Origin: Desulfotalea psychrophila LSv54
GTDB lineage: Bacteria > Desulfobacterota > Desulfobulbia > Desulfobulbales > Desulfocapsaceae
DNA length: 32,000 nucleotides
Assembly (NCBI RefSeq): GCF_000025945.1
Contig: NC_006138.1
Coordinates: forward strand, 720,001 to 752,000
Direction: 5' to 3'
Shown piece by piece: positions 10,688 to 31,253 of this stretch (the first letter of the stretch is position 1; each line of letters opens with the position of its first letter). The translations under genes were made by a program, and so were the position numbers. A model generated the notes under the pieces. It was given only the letters and a program-made list of their open reading frames with translations, was not told the origin of the DNA and did not search any database.

Positions 10688-11605
10688 ATGTCATTTCCAG
10701 CCCTTATAGAAAAGGTACACCGCAGAGCTAATATTTTCTTTCCAAATGAGAGGTATACAGCTGAATTAATAGACGAAATGATAGATGTTGGTGATATATT
10801 TATTGAAGCCAAGGATATATTACCCTATCTGCATTCAGCCTTACTCGATGGGAAAATGGTTGAGGTGCAGTTGGATAATAATCCTCGGGTATTTTTCAGC
10901 CATCTTCACGATGATCCTCCTCCGCCCTTGGAACAAGAGGAACAAGAGGAACAAGAGGAACAAGAGGAGGCTGCTTATAAGGAGAACAGCTATCTTGAGA
11001 ATCTCTCTCATGTCATCATGTTTCCCGTAGAGCCTGGTATGGGGAACTATGCCCTGCGTTACAGCCGTTATGTTATTCTTCGTTTTTTTGTTTCGTTTTA
11101 TGCTGTTGAGGTTGCAGCAGAGTTTCAGGAGGTTGTCTATCAGGATGGAGTTCCTCTGTTTCGTCTGGGTTTTCCCTCCATAGGGCGTATTGTTCGCAAG
11201 GCCCGGGAATTTCGAGCTAAGGTAGCAAAAAAAATGGAGTTGATGTTGGTTGTTCAGGCAAGCAGTAAGCGCCCAACAATAGAAACCCGTATTATTGATA
11301 TCAGTGCCGGGGGTGTTAGTTTTTTTCTTTCCCGTCTAGAACAGAAAAGGATCAAAGTTGATGATGTGTTGCGACTAAAGGTCTATCTGGATCAGAAATT
11401 ATTGCTCAGCATAGGGGGGAGGGTGAGACATCTCTCCAAGATAAGAACCGGCAGTGGGGTGGAGTTCATCTGTGGCTTTCAGTTTGATTTAGCAAATAGA
11501 ACAGTTGCAAGCTCTGTTGAAGCGCTGGTTGCTCAGGTGCAGCGTGTTCATCTACATGAACTGGCAGATAAATCTGCCGAGTATGGGTTTTCTGTCCTGG
11601 CCTAG
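10688..11605 (+). CDS. PilZ-domain-like protein with an acidic EQE-repeat linker (possible c-di-GMP effector)
   Basis: 305 aa. The C-terminal part has RKAREFRAKV followed ~30 aa later by RIIDISAGGVSFF (the DxSxxG half of the PilZ motif). The RxxxR half is not canonical. The N-terminal ~170 aa are unassigned. Confidence 0.55.
   Translation: MSFPALIEKVHRRANIFFPNERYTAELIDEMIDVGDIFIEAKDILPYLHSALLDGKMVEVQLDNNPRVFFSHLHDDPPPPLEQEEQEEQEEQEEAAYKENSYLENLSHVIMFPVEPGMGNYALRYSRYVILRFFVSFYAVEVAAEFQEVVYQDGVPLFRLGFPSIGRIVRKAREFRAKVAKKMELMLVVQASSKRPTIETRIIDISAGGVSFFLSRLEQKRIKVDDVLRLKVYLDQKLLLSIGGRVRHLSKIRTGSGVEFICGFQFDLANRTVASSVEALVAQVQRVHLHELADKSAEYGFSVLA
10931..10968 (+). repeat. in-frame 9-bp tandem repeat (gaacaagag) x4 plus a partial unit
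   Basis: Read directly as gaacaagag x4. It encodes EQEEQEEQEEQEE inside the PilZ-like CDS. Confidence 0.95.
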
Positions 11606-12613
11606 GAATCTGTCGGTTTTGTGGCAGCAGATTTGGCAGGTAATCGCTGTTGCATTGTCTGTCCGGTACTTGGAGGAAACTCCGGGCATTTATGTTCTTG
11701 AGCGGCCGGGAACATGCTATCCAGATATTTATTGTGCTTTATTCTGCTTGTAGCCACATAGCTAGTTATACCAACTCGATCAAGAAGCTCATAGTTAGGC
11801 TCACTAAAATAACAGGTATCTGCAGGTAACACCGATATTTTTTTCTAAAGCGATGTAATTCCTCAATTGCTAGCCCGCTTGGAAGCGGTGCTGTGGGTGG
11901 TTTTTCTGGCGGTTTACTCCCTGTTTATTCTCTTTTTATTTTCGTCTTACCAATTTTTCTGCATACGCCTTTTGCTCTTTAACATGGCTGGCAGATGCAC
12001 GAGCCTCTATCTCTATTTTAGCTTATCTGATTTTTTCAAGACGATCCTCGCGTCTGGCAATCTGCTGTTGTCACTCTCTTCTGTTTTATTCAGCAATATT
12101 TCAATTTTTGTTTGTAACTGCTTTTCAAGTTGACAGGCTCGCCCATAACTAAGAGCCCTATCTTTTGAAGCATTAGATTTGACCTTGCTTCCATCAAGGC
12201 TGACACCATCAAAGCGAAGAACTTCCATTTCATGAGCTATATAAATAATCAGGACAAAAAAAAATTTGTAAATGAGGGAGAGAGGGATGTCTGCAGGAGG
12301 CTATAGTGTCGTGCCGGGATGACAGTTGCCCGTGATATATCGAAAATCAACAGAGTCATAAGTGACTTTTACAATTTTACAATGGCAAAACATTCCTGTC
12401 GCATATCCGTAGAACAAAAGAAGGGCTGTCGTCATTTCTTGGTTATATATTTTACTGTTTTGACCGATATATTAATTCTTAATTGCAGAAAGAGTCAATG
12501 GTCAGGCAGGAGTGCTGAGGAACCAAATTCATTGTTGAGAATTTTGCTGGCCTGTCCGCCTGGCCTGCCTGAAGTAGGGCATTGCCCTTTCCAAGTAGAG
12601 ATCTTTCGGTCAT
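11602..12613 (-). pseudogene. decayed IS1182/IS5-like DDE transposase relic (stops, frameshifts, internal deletions, no intact ends seen)
   Basis: Minus-strand fragments are colinear with IS1182-type transposases, recalled from memory. In order they are NLVPQHSCLTIDSF (like LIPEDHPVRFID.F), EMTTALLLFYGYATGMF...YDSVDFRYITGNCHPGTTL*, LDGSKVKSNASKDRALSYGR, and PADTCYFSEPNYELLDRVGITSYVATSRIKH (like DAGYFSEEN...YIA). They lie in different frames and are separated by stops. Confidence 0.7.
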
Positions 12614-12848
12614 TTTCTGCTGTCTTCTTTGGGAGAAGATATTAATATTGAGTACTTTTTTTGCCTTCTTGCAAGATATTAAAACTCTAGGTACATATAT
12701 ATTGTAAACTTTGTTGTAATGAAATTTTTTTATGGCGAGGCGCTGTTGAAGGAAAGTATCTTTATGGCAGAACTTTTTAATTTTAAATATAGATTAAGAC
12801 CTTGCGCGATGTCTATAGACTCTACAGGGGCAGACAAGAGAGGGACTT

Positions 12849-18288: not shown

Positions 18289-18392
18289 GTGCATTTATTA
18301 GGTGGAGAAGGACATGTGCTGTTCTTCCTTTTTTTTAAGAGTCCTGGCATCTTGCTGCGACTCTGTTTTTATGTAAGGTAGGAGTGGTTCAT

Positions 18393-19711
18393 ATGGATGG
18401 AAAAAATTCTCTTGATTATAACTTTCGCTTTCGCGATTGTTTTCTGGGGGCGCAGATGCTCTTTGTCGCCTTTGGTGCCCTGGTACTTGTGCCGATTTTA
18501 ACGGGACTTGATCCCAATGTATCACTTTTTACAGCGGGTATTGGTACCCTCGTCTTTCAGGTGATCACCAGGGGGAAAATTCCTGTATTTTTGGCATCTT
18601 CCTTCGCCTTTATTGCTCCTATTATATATGGGGTCCAAACCTGGGGGGTGGCGGGAACCATGTGTGGTCTTGCTGCTGCCGGTGTCTTTTATATTATTTT
18701 GAGCTTTTTCGTTCGTTATTTTGGTACAGGTATTGTGCATCGATTACTGCCTCCGGTGGTAACCGGTCCCGTTATCATGGTCATTGGTCTGGTGCTGGCC
18801 CCCGTGGCGGTCCATATGGCCACCGGCCGAACAGGTGATGGCTCTGCCTGGTTGGTGCCTTCGGATACCGCGGCTATCATTGCCGGTGTCTCTCTGGTGA
18901 CCACTATTTTGGTAACTCTCCTGGGTCGAGGCTGGTTAAAGCTTGTGCCCATCATGTGCGGTATAACCGCAGGCTATATTACCTGTCTTGTCCTTGATTT
19001 CAGCGGTTATACGTGCCACGTCATCAGGCCGCCTTTGATCCAGGCGTTTTGGCCAACTACACATCTTCTCAGCTTCTATCTTTAAAGCCGATCACCGATA
19101 GTGCCTGGTTTGCCATACCTCACTTCACCTTTCCCGAGTGGAACTGGAGTGCCGTGCTCTTTATTGTCCCTATTGCCATTGCCCCTGCTATTGAGCATTT
19201 TGGCGATGTACTGGCCATTCGCTCTGTTACCGGAAAGGACTATTTGGAAGAGCCCGGAATCCAAAATACCCTGCTCGGTGATGGAGTTGCCACCTCCATA
19301 GCCTCTTTTCTCGGTGGTCCCCCAAACACCACCTATTCCGAGGTGACGGGAGCGGTTGCCTTGACCAAGGCCTTTAACCCTGCAATTATGACCTGGACTG
19401 CCCTGACAGCAATTCTCTTCTCCTTTGTGGGTAAGATCGGTGCCTTTCTTGCCACTATTCCAACTCCTGTCATGGGTGGAATTATGATTCTGCTTTTTGG
19501 TATGATTACCGTAATCGGTATTAATACCTTGGTGAAGGCAGGCTCTGACCTTAGTCGTCCCCGTAACCTTGTTATTGTCTCTGTTATTTTGGTATGTGGT
19601 ATTGGTGGGATGAAGTTTACTGCCGGTGCGCTTGCCATTGAGAAGATTGGTCTTGCCGGTATACTTGGCGTGCTCCTCAATCTTATTTTGCCAGCAGAGC
19701 GTGAGGAATAG
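18393..19711 (+). pseudogene. uraA: NCS2-family uracil permease (UraA/PyrP-like) split across two reading frames
   Basis: The ORFs 18384..19085 and 19013..19711 are the N- and C-terminal halves of one uracil/xanthine permease (FLGAQMLFVAFGALVLVPILTG... then ...AWFAIPHFTFPEWNW...IEHFGD...GGPPNTTYSE...). They lie in frames that differ by 1. The overlap window for the frame switch is 18998-19085. The likely start is ATG 18393, with GGAG 8 nt upstream. Confidence 0.75.
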
Positions 19712-26511: not shown

Positions 26512-27999
26512 ATGACCTCGTCAGCAATACGACTCGAAAACATATCAAAGTCCTTTGGTGATGTCCATGCCAACAGAGATGTTTCGTTGGATATACGCAA
26601 GGGGCGCGTCCTCGCTCTCCTCGGTGAAAATGGAGCAGGTAAGTCCACCCTGATGTCTATCCTGGCCGGACAGCTTCAACCCGATTCCGGCACCCTCTAT
26701 GTCGAGGGGGAAGCCGTTGTCTTTTCCACCACGGAGAAGGCTATTGGGGCAGGGGTGGGCATGGTTTATCAGCATTTTAAGCTGGTCGAGGCCATGACCG
26801 TTGCGGAAAATATCATCCTGGGTCGTAAGGGGAGTTTTCTCCTCAACAAGGCTGCCATGTATCGGGACGTTCAGGACCTTGCCAACCAGTATGGGATGGA
26901 TGTTGATCCCCGGGCCAAGGTACATACCCTCGCCATGGGCGAAAAACAGCAGGTTGAAATCCTTAAACTGCTCTTCCGACAATCAAATATCCTTATCTTT
27001 GATGAACCGACGGCAGTTCTCACCCCCACCGAGGCCGAAGGCCTTTTTGTGGCCATTAAGCGGATGACGGAGTTGGGCAAGGGTATTGTCTTTATCAGCC
27101 ATAAGCTGGAAGAGGTGATGCGTATTGCCGACGATGTAGCCATTCTTCGTCGTGGTGAGGTGGTTGATACCCTGTTGGTGGAGGATGTTTCATCCACCGC
27201 TGATCTTGCCGAGCGTATGGTGGGCAAGGCGGTATTGTTGGAGGTTAATCGCCAACCACTTGAGCCTCGGCAAACGGTGTTACGTGTTGATAACCTGCAA
27301 GACGAGGTGCTGAAAGGCGTTAGTATTGATCTGCGCAAGGGAGAAATTCTTGGTATTGTTGGTGTTGCTGGCAATGGTCAGAAACAGCTGATTGAAACCA
27401 TTTGCGGGCTGAAGAAGCCACGGCTAGCGGATTCGGTCAGTCTCTTTGGCTTGCACTGGAAGGAGTTTTTCAGCAATCGAAGTTGGGATCATGCCCTCAG
27501 CTATATTCCGGAAGATCGTCAGGGGCTTGCCACCTGCCGGGATCTTGATCTTGTTGATAACTTTTTGCTGACCACCAGAGAGGGGTTCACCAATGGCCCA
27601 TTTTTAGACAGGGCTGCCGCTGCTGAAAAGCTTGAACATTTGGTGGAACTCTTTGATATTCGCCCGCCCAATATTCATGCCCTTGCCTGGCATCTCTCCG
27701 GTGGTAATTTGCAGAAGATGGTCTTGGCTCGGGAGTTTTACCGGAAGCCTCGTCTGATTGTGGCTGAGCAACCCACCCAGGGACTCGATATTTCCGCAGC
27801 GGAAGAGGTCTGGAATCTCCTCCTCAAAACCCGTGAACAGGCAGGAGTGCTTTTGGTGACAGGAGATCTCTCCGAGGCCCTGGCCCTCTCCGATCGTATT
27901 GCCGTGATGTGTGGTGGCGAGGTGATTGGCACCTTCTCAGTGGATGACACCGAGCAGGTGGATAGGATTCCACAGATGATGGCTGGCATTAAGCAGTAG
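26512..27999 (+). CDS. ABC transporter ATP-binding protein with two nucleotide-binding domains (sugar/nucleoside uptake type)
   Basis: NBD1 has Walker A GENGAGKST and Walker B ILIFDEPT. NBD2 has the signature LSGGNLQKMVLARE and Walker B LIVAEQPT. Confidence 0.92.
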   Translation: MTSSAIRLENISKSFGDVHANRDVSLDIRKGRVLALLGENGAGKSTLMSILAGQLQPDSGTLYVEGEAVVFSTTEKAIGAGVGMVYQHFKLVEAMTVAENIILGRKGSFLLNKAAMYRDVQDLANQYGMDVDPRAKVHTLAMGEKQQVEILKLLFRQSNILIFDEPTAVLTPTEAEGLFVAIKRMTELGKGIVFISHKLEEVMRIADDVAILRRGEVVDTLLVEDVSSTADLAERMVGKAVLLEVNRQPLEPRQTVLRVDNLQDEVLKGVSIDLRKGEILGIVGVAGNGQKQLIETICGLKKPRLADSVSLFGLHWKEFFSNRSWDHALSYIPEDRQGLATCRDLDLVDNFLLTTREGFTNGPFLDRAAAAEKLEHLVELFDIRPPNIHALAWHLSGGNLQKMVLAREFYRKPRLIVAEQPTQGLDISAAEEVWNLLLKTREQAGVLLVTGDLSEALALSDRIAVMCGGEVIGTFSVDDTEQVDRIPQMMAGIKQ

Positions 28000-28011
28000 C
28001 AATTCCCATAT

Positions 28012-28033
28012 GAGACGCGATAAATCGCGTCTC
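28012..28033. other. GC-rich hairpin 12 nt after the ABC ATPase stop, with no U-tract
   Basis: gagacgcga-taaa-tcgcgtctc forms a 9-bp perfect stem. There is no T-run on either strand, so its terminator function is uncertain. Confidence 0.5.
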
Positions 28034-28126
28034 TACCTCACCTCCCCCTCCACTTTGCAAAATCCAAAGAACCCCTTTTCGGGACTCCCATGGAAGATGC
28101 GAGTCAGCCCCCCTATCCTCTAGGGC

Positions 28127-28192
28127 TTAAAGCTTGTGCACAGATCTTAGTGTCCGGTGTCTTGGCCACGGGATCAAGCTTGCCGAGGTCAG
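28127..28192 (-). pseudogene. degenerate duplicate of the last ~26 codons, stop codon included, of fdhA
   Basis: 28138-28178 matches 28612-28652 at 39 of 41 positions. The flanking blocks ttaaagcttgt vs ctaaagcttgt and ccgaggtcag vs ccgaggtcag also match. An 11-nt deletion and a 4-vs-5-nt replacement break the frame. Confidence 0.8.
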
Positions 28193-28196
28193 TTGC

Positions 28197-28225
28197 TTGC
28201 CTCTACCTATCTACAAAGCTACATT
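28197..28225 (+). promoter_or_regulatory. candidate sigma70 promoter reading into the tandem array
   Basis: TTGCCT (28197-28202), an exactly 17-nt spacer, then TACATT (28220-28225). This is a hexamer match only. Confidence 0.35.
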
Positions 28226-28235
28226 TGTCGACGAG

Positions 28236-28540
28236 CCAATAAACGCATGTGCAAACGCCAAACTGGAGAAGGCGCTATGTACATGTGTATAAACGGCAAG
28301 CGGGAAAAGAGGTCGTGTACAGATGTACAAACCCCGAAAACTTGAGTTGGCGGACAATATACAGATGTATAAAGCTAGAAAACTTGAGGAGACGGCCAAT
28401 ATACATCTGTACATTGATCAAAAACCTGAGGAGATGGCCAATATACATCTGTACACAGGTCAAAAACTTGAGGAGATGGCCAATATACAGACCTACAAAG
28501 GCTCAAAGCTTGGGGAAATGGTTTATTTACGAGATATAAG
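28236..28540 (+). repeat. tandem array of about 8 units (period 42 bp, outer units 38 bp and degenerate), each with a 14-bp palindromic core
   Basis: Cores lie at 28240 (TAAACGcaTGTGCA), 28278 (TGTACAtgTGTATA), 28316 (TGTACAgaTGTACA), 28358 (TATACAgaTGTATA), 28400 and 28442 (TATACAtcTGTACA), 28484 (TATACAgaCCTACA) and about 28524 (degenerate). The units starting at 28397 and 28439 are 38/42 identical. The consensus is caatatacatctgtacaNNgRtcaaaaacttgaggagatggc. Confidence 0.9.
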
Positions 28541-28556
28541 CTCTCAAATAGAGAAA

Positions 28557-28586
28557 GGCGACATGATCTTCATGTCGCCTTTTTTT
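28557..28586 (+). terminator. strong rho-independent terminator, best on the plus strand and also usable by fdhA
   Basis: Stem ggcgacatga / tcatgtcgcc (10 bp) with loop tct, followed by 7 T on the plus strand. On the minus strand the hairpin is followed by the weaker tttctctattt. Confidence 0.8.
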
Positions 28587-28589
28587 CTT

Positions 28590-31253
28590 CTAAAGCTTGT
28601 TTATCTGCACTGCACAGATCTTAGTCCCCGGTGTCTTGGCCACGGGATCAAGGGCACCCGAGGTCAGCATATTGGTCGGAGTTTCGGAAAAGTGAAAGGA
28701 CATGGATACGCTACCGGGACGACATGAGTCATTAATTTCGACAGCCACCTTAACAGCCCCCCTGCGGGAACGAACCTCCACAATCTCGCCATCCGTCAGT
28801 GAAAATTTTTCTGCATCCTCTGGGTGAATAATAAGATTTTCTCCGCGATCAAGGACATTGAGGCCAAATACCCTTCTGGTCATGGTTCCATGAAAGTGAA
28901 AGAGGCTGCGGTCCGTGTTGAGGAGAAGTGGATATTTCTTATCCACCTGTTCCGTGGTTTTTCTCGTCTTCAGGGGCATAAAACGTGCCCTGCCGTTGGC
29001 TGTGGCAAAACGCTCGGCATGGAGGAACTTGGTGCCCGGATGATCGGTGCTGGGACATGGCCACTGCAGGGTGCCATGCTGGAGTCGGTCATAGTTAATT
29101 CCCGCATAGTTGGGAATAGTGGCGGAAATCTCTTCCATGATCTGTTCCGGTCCCTCATGGTCAAAGCCCTTTGCTCCCATCCTTGTCGCAATCTCTTTAA
29201 TGATCCACCAATCGGGCCGTGAATCACCCACCGGTTCAATTGCCTGGCGTACCCGTTGCACCCGTCGTTCGGTGTTGGTGAAGGTACCGTCCTTTTCTGC
29301 AAAGCTGCTGGCGGGTAAGATGACGTCTGCCAGTTCAGCTGTCTCAGAAAAGAAGATGTCTTGAACTACCAGGAATTTTGCCCTGTTCATGGCCTCGATG
29401 GCATGGCTGGCATTGGCCTCACTGAGTACGGGGTTTTCACCGATGAGATAAACGGATTTGATGGAGCCATCGTAGAGGCCGTCAAAGATCTCTGTATGGG
29501 TCTTGCCCGGCACTGCGGAAAGCGATGTCTGCCACTTCTCTTCAAAGGCTGCCGTGTTGTTGACAACTTTTTGATAGCCTGGATAGACGTCGGGGAGGGC
29601 TCCCATATCACAGGATCCCTGCACATTGTTTTGCCCGCGCAGGGGATTAACGCCCGTTGACTCCTTGCCTACGTTTCCGGTAAGTAGGGCGAGATTACTG
29701 GTGGCAAGAACATTGTCGGTGCCGTGTACATGTTGGGTGATGCCCATGCAGTAGAGAATTGTGGCAGGTGACTCTGTTGCGTAGCAGAGGGCTGCCTCTC
29801 GGATTGTTTCGGCTGGGATTCCTGTGAGTTCTGCCACATCCTCCAGTTCGAATTGTTGCAGGGAGGCGAGGAAGGCAGGGTAGTTTTCACAGCGTTCTTC
29901 GATGAACTCCTTATCAATCAGGTCTTCCTCTACGATAATGCGCATCATTGTCATCAGCAGTGGAATGTCGGAACCCGGGGTATTCTGCAGGAAGATATGG
30001 GCATGTTTACAGAGATCAATTCTTTTCGGATTGATAACAATCAGCTTTGCGCCTCGGCGAACAGCATCCTTTATCTGCAGGGCGATAATTGGATGGGCGG
30101 CGGTGGTATTGGTACCAATCGCCAGGATTACCTGAGCATCGCCAATTTCGGCAATGGAGTTTGTCATTGCGCCGCTTCCAAAAGCAGTGGCCAGACCGGC
30201 CACGGTGGGAGCGTGTCACAAACGGGCGCAGTGATCTATATTGTTGGTTTTCATCACCGTGCGGGTAAATTTTTGCAGGAGGTAGTTTTCCTCGTTGGTG
30301 CATTTGGCAGAGGAGACTGCGGCAAAGCTATCACCCTTGTTCTTGGCAAAATTGTCGGCAATGAGATCAAGGGCCTCATCCCAGCTTACCGGCACAAAAC
30401 CTTCGGGCCTGCGCACCATGGGGGTGGTGAGTCGTTCCTTTGAGTTGACATAGTTAAAACCAAAGCGGCCCTTAACGCAGAGGCGGCCCCTATTGGCTGG
30501 ATTACCATGTTCGCCCCGGGCGCTTACTATCTTGTTATCGCGTACCCCCAGATCAAGTCCACATCCACAGCCACAGTAGGCGCAGACGGTTTTAACCCAG
30601 TGGCTCGGCTTAACATAATCTTTTTCAGTAAGGGCTCCCACCGGACAGCGGGCAACACATTCTCCGCAGGATTCGCAGTTAGAGAGGATCCTGGCCTTGT
30701 CGCCAAAACCGGCTACCTTGGTTGTCAGACCACGGTAGGCAAAGTCGATGGCGTTGATGTTTTGCAATTCGTCACAGGTACGTATGCAGATACCGCAGAG
30801 CACGCATCTATTGGGATCGAAGTCAAAAAACGGGTTGGAGTCATCTATGGGCAGAAGTACCTCCGGCTTTTTCAGGCGAGCCAGATGTTTTTTGTTCACC
30901 CCGATATAGTCTGCTGCCTGCTGGAGTTTGCAGGTGGTGTTGCGGGCACAGGCCAGACAGTCCATGTCATGGTCGGCAATGAGCAGTTCAATGGCAATTT
31001 TTCGGGTTTTGGCAATTGTCTCTGTCTCTGTCTCAATGACCATGCCTTCTTCCACGGGGGTCTTGCAGGAGAGGGCATCCCAACGACCGTTTACCCGCAC
31101 GGTGCAGAGGCGACAGGCTCCCACTGGTTCGAGATCGTTATGGTAGCAGAGATGGGGGATATAGATTCCCTTCTGCAGGGCAGCCTGGAGGACATAGCTC
31201 CCCTCGGGGGCAGTTACGGAACGGCCGTTAATCGTTAGTGTTACTTTCTTCAT
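28590..31253 (-). CDS. fdhA: formate dehydrogenase catalytic subunit, selenocysteine-containing, with a NuoG-like N-terminal Fe-S extension (NAD(P)-linked type)
   Basis: Track ORFs 30216..31253 and 28590..30203 are in the same frame, separated only by TGA (30218-30216). The junction reads HCARL-U-HAPTVAGLATAFGSGAM, the conserved Sec/Cys active-site block of Mo/W formate dehydrogenases. The N-terminus has a 2Fe-2S motif (CRLCTV), HDMDCLAC, two CxxCxxCxxxCP motifs and CAYCGCGCG. The total is 887 codons. Confidence 0.92.
30174..30215 (-). promoter_or_regulatory. bacterial SECIS element directing Sec insertion at the fdhA UGA
   Basis: The mRNA after the UGA reads CACGCUCCCACC-GUGGCC-GGUCU-GGCCAC-UGCUUUUGGAAGC. 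A 6-bp apical stem (30203-30198 with 30192-30187) starts 12 nt after the UGA. Its GGUCU loop resembles the E. coli fdhF SECIS loop as I recall it. A lower stem GCUCCCA/UGGAAGC has one mismatch. Confidence 0.8.

Follow-up and report, generated by a model that had tools for sequence, protein, structure and literature searches.

A 42-bp-phased array of palindromic sites beside a duplicated fdhA 3' end in Desulfotalea psychrophila

Layout of the gap between the ABC transporter gene and fdhA

The window analyzed here, by which we mean the whole 32-kb stretch of Desulfotalea psychrophila LSv54 DNA, contains a gap of 590 bp between two genes that are convergent, as the first-pass annotation had described: an ABC transporter ATPase gene ending at 27999 on the + strand, and fdhA, ending at 28590 on the - strand. 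The former is the last gene of a nucleoside-type operon (Bmp, permease, permease, xanthine phosphoribosyltransferase, ATPase), and its product matches, with 100% identity, a D. psychrophila protein from a contig of 3,523,383 bp. Since this contig is chromosome-sized and the ATPase gene lies 590 bp away, the array described below is probably located on the chromosome. The latter gene encodes the alpha subunit of a formate dehydrogenase and is divided into two ORFs by an in-frame TGA at 30216-30218 (minus strand). The surrounding residues, …NIDHCARL*HAPTVAGLA…, represent the active-site context of selenocysteine formate dehydrogenases, and relatives show the division as well, into products of ~346 and ~540 aa; judging from this context, the TGA would be a selenocysteine codon. 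Elsewhere in the window, a xanthine/uracil permease gene (Pfam Xan_ur_permease) is split into two overlapping ORFs (18384-19085 and 19013-19711, + strand) that cover profile positions 5-208 and 203-386, while relatives have one undivided gene of ~436 aa (L016, positions 14-1324); either a frameshift, a pseudogene or an error of sequencing underlies this split. The features in and around the gap are the following:

26512-27999, + strand: ABC transporter ATP-binding gene, left convergent neighbour (NCBIfam ABC ATPase families, best 1e-114, below cutoff)
28012-28033, + strand: perfect hairpin with an 8-bp stem, GAGACGCG ATAAAT CGCGTCTC, without T-tract, just 3' of the ABC gene (sequence)
28067-28089, - strand: terminator-like hairpin downstream of the relic fdhA end (terminator scan)
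28113-28193, - strand: relic copy of the last ~26 fdhA codons, ...LDPVAKTPDTKICAQALSPRG* (repeat search; translation compared with orthologues)
28217-28232, no strand assigned: degenerate palindrome AGCTACATTTGTCGAC (TACAnnTGTC); the first perfect core follows 60 bp downstream
28278-28291, no strand assigned: isolated perfect core TGTACATGTGTATA, with the array starting 38 bp further on; flanks not unit-like (pattern scan, shuffle tests)
28316-28525, no strand assigned: five head-to-tail 42-bp units, U1-U5 (Tandem Repeats Finder, repeat search, nhmmer, per-column variation)
28554-28586, no strand assigned: bidirectional terminator with a 13-bp stem, between the array and the fdhA stop (terminator scan, sequence)
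28590-28668, - strand: live fdhA 3' end, ...LDPVAKTPGTKICAVQINKL*, second copy of the bracketing direct repeat (repeat search; orthologues)
28590-31253, - strand: fdhA, formate dehydrogenase alpha subunit, right convergent neighbour (TIGR01591, 6e-184, for the C-terminal part; NuoG/Fdh-alpha for the N-terminal part)

Read in the direction of fdhA, the gap thus comprises the stop codon, the bidirectional terminator, the array, an 84-bp leader, the relic fdhA end and the terminator-like hairpin. The hairpin at 28554-28586 has a run of T on the + strand and, on the - strand, a tail rich in U; it forms the dominant stem in the RNA folds of both. No promoter-like site was detected at the array gap by the promoter/terminator scan.

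The array is bracketed by a duplication of the fdhA 3' end, which the first-pass annotation overlooked. The direct repeat (28137-28193 and 28611-28668, 474 bp apart) extends over about 57 nt, 42 nt of which are 95% identical, and the homology between the two ends stops at the stop codon. The live end, …KICAVQINKL*, agrees with its orthologues (…CAVRLEKV…, …CAVRIRKL…, …CAVRIEKL…), whereas the relic end carries a 10-nt deletion and a Gly-to-Asp change and reads …KICAQALSPRG*. As a decayed fdhA end lies 474 bp from the real one, the array sits inside an insertion or rearrangement scar that left fdhA intact, and the hairpin at 28067-28089 may well be the former fdhA terminator. A direct repeat of the 3' end of the target gene also brackets elements integrated at gene 3' ends (attL/attR), but integrase or element genes are expected inside such elements, whereas no ORF of the 474-bp segment has a protein-family match. 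The att-like 23-mer is absent from the viral contigs of IMG/VR. A derivation of the 42-bp unit itself from the fdhA 3' end was also considered and discarded, as local alignments gave p=0.01-0.38 against shuffles and were unconvincing over four tests.

Geometry of the array and variation among its units

According to Tandem Repeats Finder, the array at 28318-28499 (period 42, 4.3 copies, 78% matches) is the sole long-period repeat of the 32-kb window. Among shorter ones, GGAACAAGA, a perfect 9-bp repeat in 4.3 copies, is present at 10930-10968, in frame, inside a PilZ-domain ORF (10688-11605), and possibly represents a variable three-residue repeat. A repeat search of the window found the copies of the array in register and spaced 42/42/42, and a unit HMM (nhmmer) recovered exactly U1-U5 (28316-28525, E = 4e-11 to 1e-8), and no further unit in the window or in seven related loci. 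Each unit consists of a 14-bp core, TRTACA-NN-TGTAYA, a variable linker of 7 nt and a conserved block of 21 nt (AAAACTTGAGGAGAYGGCCAA). In register, U3 and U4 are 90% identical, U2 and U4 81%, U1 and U2 79%, and U2 and U3 76%, while U5, whose core is degenerate, shares 60-67% identity with the other units; the central units are thus most alike and the edge units decayed.

Pattern scanning of the window with TRTACANNTGTAYA gave matches at 28278, 28316, 28358, 28400 and 28442, i.e., five perfect cores (versus 0.15 expected; 0 of 100 dinucleotide shuffles reach five), all of them confined to the ABC ATPase/fdhA gap; the shorter motif TACANNTGTA does not occur elsewhere in the window either. The array is thus real, as seen from Tandem Repeats Finder, the in-register copies and the excess of cores over shuffles. 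Its extent is smaller than the about eight units initially reported, as the unit HMM recognizes only U1-U5. An outer unit placed at 28526 shares 21-33% identity with the units, which is the random level, another one at 28236 amounts to a weak local match (10 of 12, p=0.1), and a third, at 28278, is an isolated core whose 3' spacer is no more unit-like than shuffles (p=0.46-0.65). The perfect cores are spaced by 38, 42, 42 and 42 bp; four consecutive core-to-core intervals of 42 bp had been claimed, and the fourth is present, leading to a degenerate core (TATACAGACCTACA) at 28484. The degenerate site at 28217-28232 is the single match in the window to RNYKACANNTGTMRNY, the refined operator considered below. 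Together with the perfect core at 28278 and its shuffled-like spacer, it indicates that cores exist outside recognizable units.

Changes are unevenly distributed along the units. Among U1-U4, the 12 half-site positions of the core show 0.17 changes per site and the 21-nt block 0.29, versus 1.0 for the central dinucleotide and 1.29 for the 7-nt linker that follows the core; the excess of changes in centre and linker is significant in a random-placement test on U1-U4 (p=0.0006), which, like the other tests on unit variation, is post hoc and based on 4-5 units. Variation within the half-sites is limited to R/Y at two symmetric positions, and the 28 nt between cores match the consensus at 19-27 of 28 positions. 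Even the lone core at 28278 has intact half-sites within decayed surroundings, and such a perfect core beside a decayed spacer is the pattern to be expected if the half-sites of a dimer-binding site were under constraint. U5 lost its core and kept 21 of 28 spacer positions. Since conservation of the 21-nt block comes close to that of the half-sites, much of the likeness between the units could be due to recent amplification alone. The centres of the cores read, in order, TG, GA, GA, TC and TC (28322-28323, 28364-28365, 28406-28407 and 28448-28449 in U1-U4). GA and TC being reverse complements, the centre has been flipped in half of these four cores while the rest of the unit keeps its orientation, one possible cause of which would be hairpin-mediated template switching.

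Related genomes and resemblances to known sites

The adjacency of the ABC operon and the fdh operon is seen only in D. psychrophila when compared with seven related loci (L016, L019, L023, L024, L026, L042 and L043). In relatives with a 76-81% identical ABC ATPase (Desulfotalea-like genomes and metagenome contigs), other genes follow the ABC operon, and contigs encoding a 71-74% identical FdhA keep the nuoE-nuoF-fdhA operon and have other genes downstream. As every compared relative has different genes beyond each operon, the gap between 27999 and 28590 represents a synteny breakpoint. At both junctions, the gaps of these relatives measure 27-182 bp (versus 590 bp here) and contain no TACANNTGTA. 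Since their junctions differ and lack cores, the junction and the array are specific to the D. psychrophila lineage, among closest relatives that are distant (71-81% protein identity). According to the first-pass annotation, absence of the array from orthologous loci would have spoken against its reading; this is what we found in part, as the array is absent at both junctions in every relative examined, these relatives being distant and the junction itself not being conserved.

Searches for the unit beyond these loci yielded no relatives. The 42-bp unit had no blastn match among plasmids (PLSDB) and phages (INPHARED), and a tolerant unit pattern matched only twice among 241 million metagenome records, singly and by chance, in front of an unrelated gene. 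In IMG/VR, unit patterns gave single chance matches inside coding regions only. The six-frame translation of the array had no match among 5.8 billion protein clusters, and Rfam, at gathering as well as permissive thresholds, returned only sub-threshold matches to the terminator hairpin. In the literature searched, we found no relevant description of a 42-bp palindromic repeat or of a D. psychrophila repeat.

The core resembles the operators of the CopY/CopR-BlaI-MecI repressors, for which a "cop box" TACANNTGTA and a refined 16-base operator RNYKACANNTGTMRNY have been defined (PMC7253601). The former is contained exactly in all five perfect cores, but none of the five matches the refined 16-mer, all of them failing at the symmetric positions 3 and 14, and we therefore rejected a membership in this operator class. 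The setting also differs: these operators occur singly or paired at promoters of the regulator or target operon, whereas the array here consists of 42-bp tandem units in a 3'-3' gap, and no CopY/BlaI (Penicillinase_R) family gene or cop/bla operon was found in the window by Pfam.

We also scanned genomes, one per species, for two cores 42 bp apart, and obtained two kinds of matches, sites with two or three dyads and true 42-bp tandem arrays; because the search pattern imposed both the core and the distance, the shared period and core are partly so by construction, and only the multi-unit character is independent. In the first kind (L002, L006 and L015), palindromes of the same TRTACA-NN-TGTAYA type lie 42 bp apart; genes for TetR-family regulators adjoin the dyads in L002 and L015, and the dyads of L006 lie next to a transporter gene, the same one as is paired with the regulator in L015. 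These TetR-linked operators, with two or three sites, occupy divergent promoter regions next to the regulator, whereas five to seven sites lie here in a 3'-3' gap without regulator. Among viral contigs, TGTACAnnTGTACA pairs were found at nine loci with spacings of 32-57 bp, none of them at 42, so that the viral pairs give no sign of 42 bp being a privileged distance between dyads. The dyads beside TetR genes and the viral dyad pairs indicate that TRTACA-NN-TGTAYA is a genuine and common operator type for dimeric repressors; the palindrome type is not diagnostic of any single repressor family. In a phage contig of IMG/VR (IMGVR_UViG_3300031627_000002, L022 1700-1860), palindromes of the TGTACA/TATACA type are densely clustered ahead of an 11-bp tandem repeat (AATAGTGCAAA); this could be an operator or origin region with the same half-site.

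The second kind of match, found in Bacteroidota, consists of arrays of four to seven units with a period of 42, cores of the same type (TTGTACAnnTGTACAA) and a variable or flipped centre. The hosts include Flavobacterium sp. PLA-1-15, Daejeonella, Parabacteroides, a Bacteroidetes metagenome-assembled genome and others, and Flavobacterium sp. PLA-1-15 alone has arrays at no fewer than five loci, two of which lie at the end of a contig:

Flavobacterium sp. PLA-1-15: L001 3891-4189; L003 2301-2517; L007 1-230; L008 6601-6816; L009 2640-2764
Other Bacteroidota: L004 5517-5774; L010 3776-4079; L012 3125-3367

In three of the Flavobacterium arrays (L001, L003 and L008), the first core has AC at its centre and the remaining ones GT, so that the centre is likewise flipped. 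The units of the Bacteroidota arrays often contain a second small palindrome, and the arrays occur in all gene orientations without a common neighbour gene; the literature searched did not yield any account of them. The spacers of these arrays show no relationship with the D. psychrophila unit (best p 0.028 among five comparisons), and homology between the two was therefore rejected.

Possible nature of the array

Several known classes of repeats could be set aside, CRISPR arrays and microsatellites in agreement with the first-pass annotation. The array is not a CRISPR, as the "spacers" between the cores are themselves repeated and no cas domains are present in the window, and a period of 42 does not fit a microsatellite. 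A REP/BIME element was equally held to be excluded there, which we can support in part, no other copy having been found in the 32-kb window or the related loci. Iteron origins of plasmids and phages are characterized by direct repeats of 17-22 bp at about 22-bp spacing, a rep gene, an AT-rich region and DnaA boxes; with a period of 42, palindromic sites and no rep gene in the window, such an origin was rejected as well.

The likeness to a partition centromere, proposed at first sight, stands for the architecture. The sopC site of plasmid F is made of 12 units of 43 bp, and SopB binds to a 16-bp inverted repeat in each of them. The units here are of near-equal length, contain one short inverted repeat each and are phased at about four helical turns as in sopC, but only five are present, apparently on the chromosome rather than a plasmid, and the core sequence is unrelated. 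A centromere of this kind, as the relic of an integrated plasmid or prophage or as a chromosomal site for a plasmid-encoded ParB-type protein, would fit these tandem units as well as the bracketing direct repeat at a gene 3' end, which resembles an attL/attR pair. Yet, no sopA/sopB or parA/parB pair and no ParB were found by Pfam scans of the window ORFs, and the lone ParA-like ATPase, 14 kb away, is probably MinD, as it directly follows MinC. (A 1.2-kb segment upstream of minC, at 11605-12848, contains only short ORFs of up to 108 aa, none with a Pfam match.) The sopC/parS boxes TGGGACCnnGGTCCCA, TGGGACCNNGGTCCCA and TGTTNCACGTGAAACA are absent from the window, where their best matches have four mismatches and lie outside the array; the bracketed segment measures only 474 bp and has no integrase, and plasmids, phages and viral contigs (PLSDB, INPHARED and IMG/VR) gave no match. 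The analogy to sopC is thus architectural only, strict membership failing on every other feature examined, and we consider a partition centromere improbable. A structured RNA that ends at the 28554-28586 terminator, be it an sRNA or the long 3' UTR of the ABC operon, would be in line with a folding z-score of -6.3 on the + strand, with the strong + strand terminator directly after the array and with the hairpin behind the ABC gene, whose missing T-tract makes read-through plausible. The - strand folds equally well, though (z=-6.3), so the signal reflects DNA palindromy and the terminator rather than a strand-specific RNA; as neither a promoter-like site, nor an Rfam family above threshold, nor homologues for covariation were found, this explanation is very unlikely. 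Still less credible, to the point of rejection, is a small protein with 14-residue repeats (42 bp being 14 codons): the array is open in four of six frames, with ORFs at 28249-28539, which ends 15 bp before the terminator, and at 28323-28727, but open frames are automatic when the period is divisible by three. The six-frame search of 5.8 billion protein clusters was empty and no Pfam match was obtained, no ribosome-binding site is evident ahead of the GTG start at 28249, and the second ORF, of 134 aa, crosses the terminator into antisense fdhA.

We tentatively favor, at somewhat below even probability, a lineage-specific, locally amplified array of operator-type palindromes in an fdhA 3'-end scar, which would serve as a phased platform for a dimeric DNA-binding protein encoded elsewhere. 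Following this scenario, a segment of ~474 bp would have been inserted or rearranged into the fdhA 3' end, leaving a decayed copy of ~26 codons on the far side, and a 42-bp stretch carrying the operator-type palindrome TRTACA-NN-TGTAYA would have been amplified locally by replication slippage or unequal exchange. The palindromes would be putative landing sites for a helix-turn-helix or winged-helix dimer encoded elsewhere in the genome, each monomer contacting one TRTACA half-site and the two central bases not being read. As 42 bp correspond to ~4.0 helical turns, the dimers, four to five in number, would come to lie on the same face of the DNA and might bind cooperatively. The complex might act as a transcriptional roadblock separating the two convergent operons or titrate the protein, or the sites might be what remains of the regulatory or partition region of a mobile element since lost. 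The array with its cores and spacing, the bracketing duplication, the absence from relatives and the variation within units are observed, whereas the binding of a protein, the identity of this protein and the action of the complex are inferred. Against this reading, no binding protein is recognizable in the tested ORFs of the 32-kb window (Pfam), as the first-pass annotation had also reported for the neighborhood, and U5 lost its core while keeping most of its spacer, which looks like neutral decay. Moreover, the array being unique and absent from every relative examined, no evolutionary conservation argues for a function.

The main rival to such an operator array is a functionless minisatellite, i.e., a junk 42-bp stretch in a rearrangement scar in which a chance palindrome was amplified by slippage, the palindromes being mere passengers. 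MIRU/VNTR minisatellites are likewise intergenic tandem repeats of tens of bp with a period that is a multiple of three and decayed edge units. MIRUs form dispersed families with copy-number polymorphism and carry small coupled ORFs, whereas the array here has no coding signal. Neutral origin would account for a unit without relatives in any collection searched, for the absence of the array from all relatives examined, for the decayed core of U5 and for the adjoining pseudogene fragment, and central units that are alike between decayed edge units are the classic neutral picture; the Bacteroidota arrays, in all orientations and without a common neighbour, also look like selfish or neutral repeats. 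It does not readily account for a perfect lone core at 28278 with randomized flanks and an extra degenerate site at 28217, nor for substitutions that avoid the half-sites and cluster in centre and linker, and we regard it as the less likely of the two, while still a serious contender. Its practical value would then be limited to a possible strain-typing marker.

If, in line with the operator-array reading, a protein coats the array, the locus would offer a small natural case of cooperative binding in phase with the DNA helix on a bacterial chromosome, and a handle on a regulator of this psychrophilic sulfate reducer. As for fdhA, its duplicated 3' end is a record of a selenoprotein gene surviving an insertion. 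It is also conceivable, although we deem it improbable, that the D. psychrophila and Bacteroidota arrays are independent cases of one uncharacterized class, that of 42-bp-phased TRTACA-NN-TGTAYA arrays with free spacers, kept because a dimeric protein or oligomer coats one face of the helix; its function could be chromosomal and centromere-like, nucleoid-organizing or repeat-propagating, and the recurrent flip of the centre would reflect the way in which such arrays arise or are processed. As similar arrays with the same core exist in several Bacteroidota, 42-bp arrays may represent an under-described kind of bacterial repeat, and their recurrence is the lead most worth following.
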